IMG/VR virus record: IMGVR_UViG_2627854066_000007 | Direction: 5' to 3' (one strand) | DNA from: a virus | Taxonomy: Duplodnaviria; Heunggongvirae; Uroviricota; Caudoviricetes | DNA: 51,816 nt | Shown here: positions 8,412 to 48,533 of the stretch, piece by piece | How the letters are laid out: each line of letters begins with the position of its first letter | Numbering within the stretch: position 1 is the stretch's first letter | Notes under the pieces: model-generated | Database searches by the model: none | The model's input: only the letters and a program-made list of their open reading frames with translations | Told to the model about the DNA's origin: nothing | Translations under genes and position numbers: made by a program

Positions 8412-8466
8412 ACGGCGGCAGAGCAGTCACGGAGTAAAACTGATACCGCCAAACGTCACCAGAAAA
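8412..8466 (-). ncRNA. dicF: DicF small regulatory RNA (ftsZ-targeting)
   Basis: Reverse complement reads TTTTCTGGTGACGTTTGGCGGTATCAGTTTTACTCCGTGACTGCTCTGCCGCCG followed by a T-run, matching the DicF sequence as I recall it and ending in its terminator hairpin. Confidence 0.75.
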
Positions 8467-12216: not shown

Positions 12217-12749
12217 TGTTAGATATTTTAGACGTTACTAGATTAAAAAGCATTAGTTCAGGAGTGAATTGACATTCTCATTTTTCATGGCACAGGGTAG
12301 ATCTGGCGTGGTTGTCCGCTTTGTGCCAACAGCGGACGTTACTAACGAAACTGTGAGTTAAAAACGGGAGCTGGTCACCTCCATCCCGCGAAATGGAATT
12401 CAAAAATGCCCTCATGTACGGTACTTCTAGTCTGATGTGAGCATTTTCGTGGATTTTTTCGAGCCACTCCAACGAATGATTACATTCAGTTTCGGGCACT
12501 AAAACGTCATAAATCCGCAAGTTGAGGAGTAGCGATCAGCCAATTGGTTAAAAAACAGCTTTAATTCCCTTTTTCAAGCAGGCTCCTTGTCGCACGTCTG
12601 GTGCATCCAATTCATTTCAGTTACCCTGATGCCATACTGGCACGGACTAGCTCTCTTAATTGGCGCTGGTTTGTTAACCTTGTCCGCTGTCGGGTCTTTG
12701 TAAGTTGTAATTCCTAAACTAGCATAATTTTATTATAAGGCCTCTTACT

Positions 12750-13775
12750 ATGCACATTTTATCTGTTTCAAAAAAGGAAGTTGGAAGAGCTGGGGATAGA
12801 TTAGTTTCTCAGTTTGGTACAGGTGAAAAATATAAAGAGGAAGATGTACAAATTCTTCATGAGTGGAGGATGTTGCATTTATATCCTTTAAGTAAAATAC
12901 AATTTTATATGGAAAGAGAGGCTATTTCCTTAAACAAAAATGCGTTACTATCCTCTAGAATTAAGAGGATGCCTTCCATTGTTACTAAGCTTTCTAGATT
13001 TCCTGATATGAAGTTAAATAAGATGCAGGATCTTGGTGGGTGCCGGGCTATTTTAAATAATCTGGATCAAGTGTATGATTTAGTTAATAAAATAAAATCA
13101 TCTAAATTCTCACATGAACTAGTTAGAATGGATGATTACATGATAGACGTGAAAGATTCTGGTTATAGAAGCTTTCATATGGTCTATTCATTCCAAAATA
13201 AAAAATTTCCATCTTTAAATGGGTTGCGCATTGAAATGCAAATAAGAACAGCTATTCAACATAGCTGGGCTACAGCAGTTGAAATGGTTGGTTTGTTTCG
13301 AAAGGAATCATTGAAATCTGGTTTTGGTGATGCAAGATGGCTTAGGTTTTTTGAATTGGTATCAGAGCTTTTTTATAAACTTGAGTATGAAAAAGAACCA
13401 TCTGGGAGTTATATAAAAATATCAGAAGAATTAAGTTATTTATCCGTCGAGTTGAATGTTTTCGATATATTAGCTGCTTACAATGCCGTAGTTAGCCATA
13501 TTGAGGGTAGCAAAAAATATGATAAAGGACTTTGCATAATTGTTGTTGATACCATAAAGCGGAATATAAATATAAAGAGCTTCGAAAATCACAATCATGC
13601 GAAGGCGGCAGAAGCTTATGTCGAGTCTGAAAAATACTGCGCGGAAAATAAAGGCTGTGAAGTGGCTATGGTTTCTGTTAGTTCAATTAGTGAATTAAAA
13701 AATGCATATCCTGCTTACTTTTTAGATACGAAAACTTTTTTAAATTATCTCAGTAGGTATGTTTTTATAAAATAA
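12750..13775 (+). CDS. RelA/SpoT-like nucleotidyltransferase (small alarmone synthetase-like; candidate toxSAS/CapRel-type)
   Basis: 341-aa ORF carrying RSH synthetase motifs in order: R70-x-K72-x3-S76-x3-K80, D94-LGGCR99, G138-YRSFH143, E162-MQIRTAIQHSWA174; gene is strongly AT-rich versus flanks; ~120-aa C-terminal extension beyond the catalytic core. Confidence 0.8.
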   Translation: MHILSVSKKEVGRAGDRLVSQFGTGEKYKEEDVQILHEWRMLHLYPLSKIQFYMEREAISLNKNALLSSRIKRMPSIVTKLSRFPDMKLNKMQDLGGCRAILNNLDQVYDLVNKIKSSKFSHELVRMDDYMIDVKDSGYRSFHMVYSFQNKKFPSLNGLRIEMQIRTAIQHSWATAVEMVGLFRKESLKSGFGDARWLRFFELVSELFYKLEYEKEPSGSYIKISEELSYLSVELNVFDILAAYNAVVSHIEGSKKYDKGLCIIVVDTIKRNINIKSFENHNHAKAAEAYVESEKYCAENKGCEVAMVSVSSISELKNAYPAYFLDTKTFLNYLSRYVFIK

Positions 13776-14208
13776 AAAATGTTATCTGGAGTGGTCTGAA
13801 TTCTACTAACTTAGTTTTTTCAGACCGCTTCTGACCACAATGGCCTGTGAGGTTCTGCTGCTAGTCAACATAAAATAACAAAGCCGGCAGGTGGTGGTTG
13901 TTGTAAAGTTATTCAATGACATTCATGGAGGCTTAAGCGAATTATTTGTCCCTGGTCGGTATGGTGGCAACAGCTTGTTGCGAGAATTTGGCTAATTTGG
14001 ACTGACTTCCGCTCCTTGCTCAAAGCGGACTAGAAGGTTAGCTTGTGTCGGACTTTGCGTATTAAAAGAAGTGCTGGTGGTGACTAGTGGTTGAGCCCCA
14101 TTTCCACAGAAAAAATCAGAGAAACTATACCCAATAGTTGTATTGAATCACTGACGAGACAGCCTCATATTCATCAGGACTGGTGTACGTCCAATACAGG
14201 AGGTTGTG

Positions 14209-14298
14209 GTGCTGGTTCTCAAATGTGCGCTGGCTATTACGGCTGTAATGGCGATTTATTGTCTTGCTATTGTTCTTATGGATCGCCTTTCTGACTGA
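14209..14298 (+). CDS. Candidate 29-aa hydrophobic peptide (type I toxin-like)
   Basis: AGGAGG at 14198-14203, 5 nt before GTG; product MLVLKCALAITAVMAIYCLAIVLMDRLSD is a single predicted transmembrane helix with a charged tail. Confidence 0.3.
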   Translation: MLVLKCALAITAVMAIYCLAIVLMDRLSD

Positions 14299-14509
14299 TT
14301 TCATATTGGCGAGGTAAAGGTAGTTAAGTAGAATGGCTGCGGGTGCTTGAGGCTATCTGCCTCGGGCATGAACACCAAAGGCAGATAGAGAAAAGCCCCA
14401 GTTAACATTACGCGTCCTGCAAGACGCTTAACATTAATCTGAGGCCAATTTCATGCTAGACACATGTAGGTTAGCCTCTTACGTGCCGGAAGGCAAGGAG
14501 AAGCAGGCT

Positions 14510-14665
14510 ATGAAGCAGCAAAAGGCGATGTTAATCGCCCTGATCGTCATCTGTTTAACCGTCATAGTGACGGCACTGGTAACGAGGAAAGACCTCTGCG
14601 AGGTACGAATCCGAACCGGCCAGACGGAGGTCGCTGTCTTCACAGCTTACGAACCTGAGGAGTAA
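14510..14665 (+). CDS. hok: Hok-family type I toxin
   Basis: 51-aa ORF MKQQKAMLIALIVICLTVIVTALVTRKDLCEVRIRTGQTEVAVFTAYEPEE, a canonical Hok/Gef sequence; in-frame upstream extension from 14453; structured leader upstream. Confidence 0.85.
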   Translation: MKQQKAMLIALIVICLTVIVTALVTRKDLCEVRIRTGQTEVAVFTAYEPEE

Positions 14666-14733
14666 GAGACCCGGCGAGGGAGAAATCCCTCGCCACCTCT
14701 GATGTGGCAGGCATCCTCAACGCACCCGCACTT

Positions 14734-14760
14734 AACCCGCTTCGGCGGGTTTTTGTTTTT
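14734..14760 (+). terminator. Rho-independent terminator downstream of hok
   Basis: GC-rich hairpin AACCCGCTTCGGCGGGTT followed by TTTTGTTTTT. Confidence 0.5.
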
Positions 14761-14881
14761 ATTTTCAACGCGTTTGAAGTTCTGGACGGTGCCGGAATAG
14801 AATCAAAAATACTTAAGTAGCGCGCAGGGATAAGAGGGATGGTCCCTTAAAGGGGAGAGCTAATTATCCGGAAGGATTCTG

Positions 14882-17662: not shown

Positions 17663-17970
17663 TAGGGGACAGAAAAACTCCTTAATACTGATAACCTGGT
17701 GCACCATACACACGTTCCTGGAGAAAACTACTTTTTTGATAGGGTTGAAGGTGGCTGGATGTCTAAAATAAACATTGCTTCATATGTTCAACTATGAGTT
17801 AATGACTGCGTCGGTTTGAAGAACAGACGATATACGAAGTAGTTTACTAAAGCAGTTCTCATTTCAGGTGTTATTCACTTATTCCTTCTTTGAGTCTCTC
17901 CAATTAAGTACGAAGTCGTTTCTGTTATGCAAACCATTTATGCCGAAAGGCTCAAGTTAAGGAATGTAGA

Positions 17971-18186
17971 ATGTCAAATAAAATGACTGGTTTAGTAAAA
18001 TGGTTTAACGCTGATAAAGGTTTCGGCTTTATTTCTCCTGTTGATGGTAGTAAAGATGTGTTTGTGCATTTTTCTGCGATTCAGAATGATAATTATCGAA
18101 CCTTATTTGAAGGTCAAAAGGTTACCTTCTCTATAGAGAGTGGTGCTAAAGGTCCTGCAGCAGTAAATGTCATCATTACTGATTAA
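17971..18186 (+). CDS. cspB: Cold-shock protein CspB-like
   Basis: 71-aa [41 protein letters not shown]... with RNP1/RNP2 cold-shock-domain motifs; long AT-rich 5' leader. Confidence 0.85.
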
Positions 18187-18467
18187 AATTCATCGCTCGT
18201 CTGTATACGATAACGAAGAAGGCTGATGCCTGAGTAGAGATACGGACAGAGTAGTGAATATTGGATCTCTTTAATAAAAAGTAAGGAGGTCCAATACATG
18301 AAACAATGGCCAGCATATTTGGCAAAATCTTAATCAGGAAAAGTATGCTAACCATTGTGGTGAAGTGCAGGTTTGCTGCATGAATAGTTTTACAGCAGAA
18401 GCTAACTGCTGGCATGGCAAAACAAAGTGCGTAAGTGGATGACTCCCACAAAAAGCACCACAATCTC

Positions 18468-20495: not shown

Positions 20496-20859
20496 GGTAA
20501 TATTAAATCGGAACATTTACATCGCGGAATGTAAAATTTAAATAAAAAGGACTCTTCCATGAGCCAAAATTCCTGAAATCTTAAGGGTAAGATAAAAGGT
20601 CTTAATCAGAATGACACGTTTTATTAATAAATAAAGCTATTCTTTCATTGCTGTGTTTTTCTTTACAAAAGTAATCCTTGCTATGGGTGGTTAATCATGC
20701 GTTAATGGTGTTCTGGTTTGTTACAAATTTATCTGAAGCAGTCATTTTTATAATTTTATTATTTGTACCTCTTGAGATTTCCTTGTTGGTTTTTCTCTCT
20801 GATATTTTTTTTTTCGGACCATTCTGCCCAAGGGCTAATTTCTTCAAAAGGTAATAATT

Positions 20860-21072
20860 ATGTCTAACAAAATGACTGGTTTAGTGAAATGGTTTAACCC
20901 TGAAAAAGGTTTTGGTTTCATCACGCCGAAAGATGGCAGCAAAGATGTGTTTGTCCATTTCTCAGCAATTCAGAGCAACGATTTCAAAACATTAACTGAG
21001 AATCAGGAAGTTGAATTTGGTATTGAGAACGGACCTAAAGGTCCTGCCGCTGTTCATGTAGTGGCGCTTTGA
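20860..21072 (+). CDS. cspI: Cold-shock protein CspI-like
   Basis: 70-aa [41 protein letters not shown]...; long AT-rich leader upstream. Confidence 0.85.
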
Positions 21073-21343
21073 GGTAGACAATATTACAAACCATATTCAC
21101 TTTAGATGCCCGTGTTGTCATGGTTCCCAGTATAGAACATCATCTTTTGATGTTTCTGACATGAATCCTTTCGGGGCAAAATGTATCTTTTGTAAATCAA
21201 TGATGATTACATTTGATAATATTTCACAATACTTAAATGCCAGCCGTCTGTCGTTGGATTTAAAAAAGTGAAAATGAAGGCTCCTTCGGGAGCTTTTTTG
21301 CTTGGTGTCTATTCGATGGATACTCACATACTACGGTAACATC

Positions 21344-47931: not shown

Positions 47932-48533
47932 TGGCATTCAGAATGAGTGAACAACCACGGACCATAAAAATTTATAATCTGCTGGCCGGAACTAATGAAT
48001 TTATTGGTGAAGGTGACGCATATATTCCGCCTCATACCGGTCTGCCAGCAAACAGTACCGATATTGCACCGCCAGATATTCCGGCTGGCTTTGTGGCTGT
48101 TTTCAACAGTGATGAGGCATCGTGGCATCTCGTTGAAGATCATCGGGGAAAAACCGTCTATGACGTGGCTTCCGGCGACGCGTTATTTATTTCTGAACTT
48201 GGCTCGTTACCGGAAAATGTCACCTGGTTATCCCCGGAAGGGGAATATCAGAAGTGGAACGGCACAGCCTGGGTGAAGGATACGGAAGCAGAAAAACTGT
48301 TCCGGATCCGGGAGGCGGAAGAAACAAAAAACAGCCTGATGCAGGTAGCCAGTGAGCATATTGCGCCGCTTCAGGATGCTGTGGATCTGGAGATCGCAAC
48401 GGAGGAAGAAACCTTGTTGCTGGAAGCCTGGAAAAAGTATCGGGTGTTGCTGAACCGTGTTGATACATCAACTGCACCGGATATTGAATGGCCAGCCCTA
48501 CCGTATGGTAAGATATATAAATTCTATAATTAG
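47931..48533 (+). CDS. Tail fiber assembly protein (Tfa)
   Basis: 200-aa ORF starting at the stf stop (TAATG overlap), Tfa-like size and position. Confidence 0.85.

Follow-up and report, generated by a model that had tools for sequence, protein, structure and literature searches.

Positions 14306–14757 of the window, by which we mean the whole 51,816-nt stretch of viral DNA analysed here, carry a full hok/mok/sok type I toxin-antitoxin cassette. Very probably it is intact and belongs to the hokD/hokW lineage, and its place is a lambdoid prophage at the Qin site, between a variable defence-gene slot and the rem-ydfU-Q genes. For this interval we have observed the sequence elements, their alternative pairings, the conservation of both and their homology to validated loci. 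The hok/mok/sok system met here is already known; it is a textbook one, present in one of its commonest forms, and judging from the sequence we have high confidence that its molecular mechanism would follow the R1 paradigm.

The preliminary description of this DNA had proposed a complete hok/sok-type unit, and this proposal has held, as the Rfam leader match, the sok promoter and the fbi, tac, ucb and dcb pairings have all been found. Of the elements that it had suggested locating, the sok promoter has been placed by comparison with 933W and an R1-type locus, and fbi, tac and ucb have been recovered by folding. The prophage concerned is lambdoid and is integrated beside rspB-rspA-ynfA-ynfB-speG, the chromosomal site of Qin in K-12. 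In the annotated record of strain 104 that matches the window, the integrase, excisionase, exonuclease, terminase and portal genes bear no pseudogene flags, unlike those of Qin.

Transcripts and reading frames of the cassette

The promoter, transcript, reading frames and terminator of the hok mRNA are the following.

14306–14334, plus strand: hok promoter, with −35 TTGGCG (14306–14311), a 17-bp spacer and −10 TAGAAT (14329–14334)
14341–14757, plus strand: predicted full-length hok mRNA, ~417 nt
14441–14444, plus strand: mok Shine-Dalgarno (SD) sequence GAGG, 8 nt ahead of the mok ATG
14453–14665, plus strand: mok reading frame, 70 aa, with hok in frame and a common stop codon
14495–14500, plus strand: hok SD sequence AAGGAG, read from the sequence and invariant
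14510–14665, plus strand: hok toxin gene, 51 aa from ATG 14510, product MKQQKAMLIALIVICLTVIVTALVTRKDLCEVRIRTGQTEVAVFTAYEPEE
14648–14650, plus strand: Tyr47 codon TAC in a UACG motif, a candidate TadA A-to-I recoding site (Tyr to Cys)
14734–14760, plus strand: intrinsic terminator of the hok mRNA from a terminator scan, a hairpin (14734–14751) with a 7-bp GC-rich stem followed by the T run TTTGTTTTTA

The hok promoter matches the consensus at 9 of 12 positions in a consensus scan. The predicted transcription start, G14341, agrees with position 1 of the Rfam model, and also with the GGCGCUU 5' end that we have taken as position 1 of the R1-type mRNA. Rfam family RF01794, named 'sok', matches the leader at 14341–14515 on the plus strand with 117.1 bits against a gathering score of 59 (model positions 1–157). 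What RF01794 captures in this match is the leader on the sense strand, which runs from the start of the hok mRNA to the hok AUG. A minus-strand 'sok' match at 14257–14399 is weak (20 bits) and has been dismissed as noise. At the other end of the transcript, the downstream terminator reported earlier is indeed present as a hairpin and T run. The hok 3' UTR and terminator (14674–14755) also match Salmonella IsrK in Rfam, at 25.7 bits and thus below the gathering score of 50; this likeness probably reflects a shared hairpin-terminator shape. A Salmonella counterpart was sought via Rem homologues, which gave Escherichia phages only, and a literature search for IsrK together with hok returned nothing relevant.

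The 51-aa product had been described as a canonical Hok/Gef toxin, and we agree with this assignment. It matches Pfam HOK_GEF (PF01848) with E 1.2e-23, its residues 6–47 aligning on profile positions 1–42 of 42, and it is identical to K-12 HokD, as the hok DNA is to K-12 hokD. The in-frame upstream extension from 14453, which had also been pointed out, can be identified as Mok: it shares 91% identity with MokW as annotated in phage 933W, and the geometry of mok and hok is that of the annotated mokW/hokW and mokC/hokC pairs. In a four-way alignment of the window, 933W hokW, K-12 hokC and the R1-type locus, both the mok SD GAGG and the hok SD core AAGGAGAAG (14495–14503) are invariant; GAGG is likewise given as the mok SD of R1 (PMC9841398). 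As for the putative recoding site, hokC, hokD and hokE are reported to be edited at the corresponding Tyr codon (bioRxiv 10.1101/2025.08.07.668861).

The antisense RNA and its promoter can be placed on the opposite strand as follows.

14391–14461, minus strand: Sok RNA gene, ~71 nt, placed through two annotated homologues, sokW (a misc_RNA in 933W) and sokC (an ncRNA in K-12)
14468–14496, minus strand: sok promoter, with −35 TTGCCT (14491–14496), a 17-bp spacer and −10 TAACCT (14468–14473)

A Sok RNA had been expected on the minus strand across the leader, and our mapping by homology and structure would place it exactly there. Its 5' end is 14461 according to two independent annotations (933W sokW and K-12 sokC), and its 3' end lies somewhere within 14385–14391. 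For comparison, sokW is complementary to the hokW 5' UTR over 71 nt (PMC8621323). Folded Sok has an unpaired 5' tail of 15 nt, after which come a long hairpin and the U tract (−30.3 kcal/mol, z = −5.5). The free 15-nt tail is complementary to the loop region of the target hairpin in the hok mRNA, and Sok overlaps the mok start by 9 nt, as does sokC. A generic promoter scan did not call the sok promoter, because its −10 TAACCT matches the consensus at only 3/6 positions. We have accepted this promoter by homology and not by consensus score: both hexamers are identical in 933W, and TTGCGC-17-TATCCT stands at the corresponding position of the R1-type locus.

The RNA switch and its conservation

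Using the definitions of fbi, tac, ucb, dcb and the metastable hairpin from PMC9841398, we have assigned the RNA elements below, all on the plus strand.

14341–14352, plus strand: tac element, which supplies the 5' strand of the fold-back (fbi) helix
14348–14364, plus strand: metastable 5' hairpin of the nascent transcript, UGAGGC-uaucu-GCCUCG, from the fold of the first 25 nt
14353–14388, plus strand: upper tac stem, 14353–14362 with 14379–14388, 10 bp
14393–14399, plus strand: ucb, the anti-SD box AAGCCCC, from the folds
14441–14478, plus strand: Sok-target hairpin of the truncated mRNA, GAGGC (14441–14445) with dcb GCCUC (14474–14478)
14673–14694, plus strand: 3'-UTR hairpin GGCGAGGGA-GAAA-UCCCUCGCC, from the folds
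14715–14727, plus strand: fbi element CCUCAAcGCACCC, which supplies the 3' strand of that helix

The full-length hok mRNA has a minimum free energy (MFE) of −176 kcal/mol, with z = −7.8 against 100 shuffles; together with the RF01794 match, this bears out the long structured leader that had been proposed. In the full-length MFE structure, 14341–14352 is paired with 14715–14727 over 12 bp with one bulged C, and the mok SD is masked by ucb, its G14444, G14443 and G14441 being paired with C14396, C14397 and C14399, respectively. When the 3' end is cut to 14710 or 14700, 14341–14348 switches to ucb 14393–14399. The loop of the Sok-target hairpin is CUAGACA (14456–14462), including a YUNR-type CUAG, and the mok AUG lies in its stem. 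We have also folded nascent transcripts of 25–175 nt, and the switch elements are recovered there and in truncations at or before 14710. The perfect stem CTATCTGCC/GGCAGATAG of the preliminary description (14353–14361 / 14380–14388) corresponds to the upper tac stem, where it extends to 10 bp. The R1-type equivalent of the metastable hairpin sequence is GAGGCuuucuGCCUC. By analogy with the R1 mutational map (PMC9841398), the 14673–14694 hairpin is probably the stem that protects the processed mRNA at its 3' end.

As a control, we have folded the R1-type mRNA in the same way. The fbi helix appears at 398 nt and the tac-ucb stem at 375 nt, and this switch agrees with the published model (PMC9841398). 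On the other hand, the MFE structure at 361 nt is unlike the published truncated form, and we therefore read single MFE folds as qualitative support only.

Based on the above pairings and on the R1 paradigm, we infer that the cassette is transcribed, that its mRNA is processed at the 3' end and that its product can kill, in the following manner. The sigma-70 promoter would give rise to the hok mRNA of ~417 nt, and tac would be sequestered by the 5' hairpin in the nascent transcript. In the full-length RNA, tac would pair with fbi and the mok SD would be masked by ucb, a state that should permit neither translation nor Sok binding. Slow 3' trimming would then strip fbi, so that tac could move to ucb and the mok SD to dcb, and the resulting SD/dcb hairpin would present the mok start region in its loop. 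Sok, ~71 nt long and made convergently from TTGCCT-17-TAACCT, would pair by its 5' tail at the mok start hairpin; mok translation and the coupled hok translation would be blocked and the duplex degraded. In the hok/sok paradigm Sok is short-lived, its duplex with the mRNA is cut by RNase III, and killing follows as Sok decays. Once the supply of Sok stops, which could happen when the element is lost, when an infecting phage shuts off transcription or when the prophage is induced, the stable processed mRNA would be translated and Hok would depolarise the inner membrane.

Conservation has been examined in 64 distinct mRNA sequences, which derive from a viral-contig scan (80 loci, with Mok identity of 93–100%) plus phage records. 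In these variants 97.9% of pair cells are standard, against 34–41% with slid partners, although this control is biased toward the structure, which was derived from the window sequence itself. For the fbi helix, 99.9% of cells are paired. The tac element at 14341–14352 is invariant in 64/64 variants with a column entropy of 0, the entropy is also 0 across 14497–14509, and the outer stem of the Sok-target hairpin is conserved. Some pairs do change on both sides. The tac-stem pair 14355/14386 goes from A-U to G-C in 5 variants, and the 3'-hairpin pair 14677/14690 is A-U in 45 variants, G-U in 17 and G-C in 1. As the relatives are close and most pairs never vary, we consider this covariation to be supportive, not strong.

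These data bear on two ways in which the cassette could be without function. Firstly, the locus might be a decayed relic, inactivated by mutations in its promoter or fold-back elements. Decayed copies do exist: K-12 hokD is without everything upstream of 14496, and at one IMG/VR locus (L038) a deletion equivalent to 14157–14353 removes the promoter and tac. In the window, however, all elements are present and pair as expected, the ORFs are open and the allele is the commonest one. A missing sok promoter and mutations in the fold-back elements, which the preliminary description had named as the marks of a relic, were sought in the window and not found, so that decay at this locus appears, from its sequence, to be hardly credible.

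Secondly, the cassette might be intact, transcribed and controlled by Sok but physiologically silent, that is, neutral prophage baggage. As summarised in a recent preprint (bioRxiv 10.1101/2025.08.07.668861), the intact-looking chromosomal hokA, hokB and hokC are reported to show neither post-segregational killing nor activation by rifampicin, and structural integrity is thus no proof of killing activity. Against silence stand the strict retention of tac, SD and fbi in the 64 variants and the compensatory changes, which argue for continued selection on the RNA switch, as well as the spread of the cassette through many phage backgrounds. In addition, the 93%-identical hokW-sokW causes growth arrest when the sok promoter is missing, and deletion of the locus halves phage release (PMC8621323). 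Overall, we regard a silent cassette as unlikely, and prefer the reading of an intact unit that works through its RNA switch.

Within this well-conserved mRNA, the most variable stretch is the patch at 14446–14462 (15–17 nt), where the Sok 5' tail meets the target loop. The alleles of the patch are discrete (CUAGAC, CUGAAC, CUUUGC and AACGGC), and the backbones that carry them are otherwise nearly identical. Such alleles would be in keeping with diversifying selection that, where a genome has multiple copies, favours Sok/hok pairs that do not cross-react.

Relation to hokW, R1, hokC and K-12 hokD

The hokW/mokW/sokW locus of the Stx2 phage 933W shows 93.4% nucleotide identity over 95% of 14330–14760. 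Phage VT2-Sakai gives the same 93.4% match, and on this ground the locus of Sp5, the Stx2 phage of Sakai, has been assumed to have in essence the sequence of 933W. The window and 933W have in common the sok promoter hexamers, the 71-nt Sok with an extended hairpin, and the tac, ucb, dcb and fbi elements. They also share an 18-nt insertion in the Sok hairpin that is absent from hokC and R1, and with this insertion and the 93.4% identity the locus belongs to the hokW-sokW subfamily. Sp5 hokW-sokW is an experimentally validated toxin with an antisense antitoxin and its own sok promoter (PMC8621323).

The two loci differ in several respects. At the Hok C-terminus the window has TAYEPEE and HokW has VDYESEK, with four residues different; the Sok-target patch reads CCAATTTCATGCTAGAC in the window and CTCAATCCATGCTGAAC in 933W. 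The sequence after fbi is also different, and the intrinsic terminator of the window is absent from 933W. Finally, the 933W locus adjoins a YgiW/YdeI-family gene and a long LPD5-domain gene, whereas that of the window lies upstream of rem-ydfU-Q.

With R1/IncF hok/sok (parB), the window has in common the whole architecture, the order of elements and, under the same folding, the switch from fbi to tac-ucb. Both the R1-type locus and the window begin with the 5' end GG(G/C)(U/G)CUUGAGGCU, contain the CAAGGAGAAG motif, use GAGG as the mok SD and have mok in frame. On the other hand, the Hok proteins are only 42% identical, the Sok hairpin of the window is 18 nt longer and its tac-stem loop is shorter, and the window locus is on a prophage while R1 hok/sok is on a plasmid. 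To our knowledge, post-segregational killing has been demonstrated for R1 only. As for hokC/mokC/sokC (gef), its leader aligns throughout and its Mok is in frame; K-12 hokC is flanked by IS186, and sokC is shorter, at 59 nt.

The comparison with K-12 hokD (relF, in Qin) concerns the same prophage site, and the downstream genes rem-ydfU-ydfT(Q)-cspB are common to both. Homology starts at 14496, 14 nt before the hok ATG, and runs past 14900 with a single difference (14677); it takes in the hok SD and ORF and, further on, the 3' hairpin, fbi and terminator. K-12 hokD has no hok promoter, tac, ucb, dcb, mok start, sok gene or sok −10, but it keeps fbi though the 5' partner of this element is gone, and relB-relE is fused 71 nt upstream of hok. 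In the window, the relB-relE-hokD (relBEF) arrangement is not found: relBE is absent and the hok leader is present.

Considering that the homology extends only from 14496 and that a partnerless fbi has been kept, the relBE-hokD of K-12 is a truncated form derived from a locus like that of the window. Since its leader and sok are missing, K-12 hok, if expressed at all, would come from the relBE operon without antisense control. The preliminary description had spoken of relBE as the partner found in K-12 Qin and absent here. The absence of relBE stands, but relBE is not a partner that this locus has lost, as K-12 is the truncated derivative.

The distribution of the two forms in E. coli is also informative for annotation. 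At least 80% of the 14200–14800 query, with the complete leader required, is present in 2578 of 5426 complete E. coli genomes, and the relE-hokD junction of K-12 type in 1165 of 5426. The window sequence is the commonest allele, and 100%-identical copies occur in many E. coli chromosomes, those of E24377A and strain 104 included. That is, the complete form of the cassette is ordinary and not unusual, being found in about half of complete E. coli genomes. In the records examined, RefSeq names the gene 'hokD' and gives neither mok nor sok, a label that leads to the mistaken view of the K-12 relBE-hokD layout as the norm; the value of the present description for annotation lies here.

Neighbouring genes and possible roles

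Upstream of the cassette, one further gene needs to be considered.

12750–13775: RelA_SpoT-domain ORF, 341 aa, by domain match

This ORF accounts for the RelA/SpoT-like gene that had been noticed in the neighbourhood. Its protein matches the PADLOC candidate PDC-S33 (E 5e-119) and aligns end to end with PDB 7ZTB/9ERV, which we take to be the structure of CapRel from phage SJ46, a defence protein in which toxin and antitoxin are fused. By this sequence likeness, the neighbour appears to be a CapRel-like defence protein and one of many alternative cargoes of the slot. The exact RelA/SpoT-hok arrangement occurs in 41 genomes, and E24377A has an AIPR-family gene in the same place. At the 80 viral loci the upstream gene belongs to ~30 unrelated clusters, among them Septu PtuB, Kiwa KwaB, a dCTP deaminase, PDC-S06, PDC-S39, PDC-M68B and a SIR2-like protein. 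On the left, homology tends to end at 14041, 14166, 14199, ~14254–14276 or ~14313–14341, and on the right at 14752–14780. Judged from these sequence comparisons, the cassette behaves as a mosaic module that borders a defence hotspot.

As a side observation, a hypervariable slot in lambdoid prophages has the cassette as its constant boundary on the right, and relBE is also found among the cargoes of this slot. A search of the literature has turned up no direct statement that hok marks defence hotspots in prophages.

With regard to physiological role, which we likewise infer, prophage addiction, help in lysis or release after induction (as with hokW-sokW) and abortive infection are the candidates suggested by analogy. 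The cassette may work mainly in the lytic programme of the phage or in abortive-infection defence, and not in addiction; we treat this as a serious possibility, though somewhat short of an even chance. In Sp5, mitomycin C lowered sokW RNA and raised HokW, and deletion of the locus delayed growth arrest after induction and halved Sp5 release (PMC8621323). The hok gene of the window is co-oriented with the rightward early genes, between the replication genes and Q, and from this orientation read-through upon induction could oppose the convergent sok promoter. The adjacent slot holds defence systems in many relatives, and R1 hok/sok excludes T4 according to Pecota and Wood 1996, as far as that work is cited in PMC8621323. 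However, the Sp5 locus is at a different place in its phage genome, and a genome-wide survey has found no general enrichment of hok beside defence systems (bioRxiv 10.1101/2025.08.07.668861). Moreover, these roles and post-segregational killing look alike at the level of sequence and are not mutually exclusive. The intact, Sok-controlled cassette that we favour is compatible with any of them.

Two small ORFs have been noted next to the cassette. A 59-aa ORF on the minus strand (14125–14304), which is annotated in phage HannyBb, has been rejected because stop codons interrupt it in 5 of 16 variants. The other is a conserved hydrophobic ORF of 29 aa, unannotated and with its own SD, which abuts the hok promoter in a subset of phages. 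Its putative start is GTG 14209, it probably has its own promoter, and by tblastn the peptide is found in only four phages. Judging by its sequence, the product could be one more small membrane protein associated with hok. It is conceivable, though rather doubtful, that the variable Sok patch alleles, the cassette-bordered defence slot and this hok-linked 29-aa ORF are jointly undescribed; these side observations could seed modest work on antisense specificity and on the exchange of defence cargo.

Variable sites in the hok mRNA and in Sok

Among the 64 distinct natural hok mRNA variants from IMG/VR viral loci and phage records, the highest variability of the entire hok mRNA falls at positions 14446-14462, where the mean entropy is 0.42, compared with 0.04 for the hok ORF. 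This patch is the contact site of the Sok 5' tail with the target loop, and it coincides with mok codons 2-3. The variation takes the form of discrete alleles, i.e., CUAGAC, CUGAAC, CUUUGC, and AACGGC, which sometimes sit on backbones otherwise like that of the window, as in the IMG/VR viral locus L053. We suggest that these four sequences may be antisense specificity alleles.

Sok itself differs between locus types. Compared with hokC and R1, the terminator hairpin of Sok in the hokD/hokW-type loci is extended at its tip by an 18-nt insertion (ACGCGTCCTGCAAGACGC, 14410-14427); therefore, their Sok is ~71 nt long rather than 55–64 nt.

Within the hok coding region, a UACG motif contains the codon for Tyr47, and it is likewise retained in phage 933W.

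14648-14650: Tyr47 codon TAC of hok, inside the UACG motif

Further downstream, a sub-threshold Rfam match to Salmonella IsrK spans the hok 3' UTR and terminator (14674-14755, plus strand), scoring 25.7 bits against a gathering score of 50 (E 0.004 in a 1.5-kb search). Since no Salmonella counterpart was retrieved from the available collections, this match is probably a mere resemblance in shape.

The small ORF upstream of hok

Immediately 5' of hok lies an unannotated hydrophobic ORF with its own Shine-Dalgarno sequence and a possible promoter.

14143-14148 and 14166-14171, plus strand: possible promoter of the 29-aa ORF (TTGAAT / CATATT)
14198-14203, plus strand: Shine-Dalgarno sequence of the 29-aa ORF (AGGAGG)
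14209-14298, plus strand: 29-aa ORF, GTG start, product MLVLKCALAITAVMAIYCLAIVLMDRLSD

The hok -35 element begins 8 nt past the end of this ORF, which is open in all 16 DNA variants examined and occurs in 4 phage records and 32 of the 80 IMG/VR loci, always immediately 5' of hok and nowhere else. Its product has no match in Pfam, NCBIfam or PADLOC. An overlapping minus-strand ORF of 59 aa was rejected as a candidate, with stop codons in 5/16 variants.

A hok cassette decayed in nature has also been observed, in the viral locus L038 (IMGVR_UViG_2778261226_000002). A deletion there, the counterpart of window 14157-14353, has taken out the hok promoter together with the small ORF and the 5' element of the tac/fbi pairing.

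The cargo slot left of the cassette and other RNA elements

The stretch from the DUF977 gene to the hok cassette (about 12220-14040), like its equivalent in the viral loci L001 and L010-L089, serves as a cargo site with hypervariable content: AIPR in E24377A, relBE in K-12, and, across further prophages, Septu PtuB, Kiwa KwaB, dCTP deaminase, PDC-S06, PDC-S39, PDC-M68B, and a SIR2-like protein, together with many unassigned genes. The window has a RelA/SpoT-domain gene here.

12750-13775, plus strand: RelA/SpoT-domain protein gene (PADLOC PDC-S33, E 5e-119)

PDB 7ZTB/9ERV, a CapRel-type fused toxSAS, can be aligned with its product from one end to the other, and this product is a candidate single-gene phage-defence protein. 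Only 41 of the 5426 complete E. coli genomes carry this gene and hok in exactly the arrangement of the window.

Elsewhere in the window, the following Rfam matches reach the gathering score, and all are consistent with a Qin-like prophage.

8413-8464, minus strand: DicF sRNA
17810-18233 and 20712-21099, plus strand: two leaders of the cspA thermoregulator type, which precede cspB and cspI
48274-48472, plus strand: IS009
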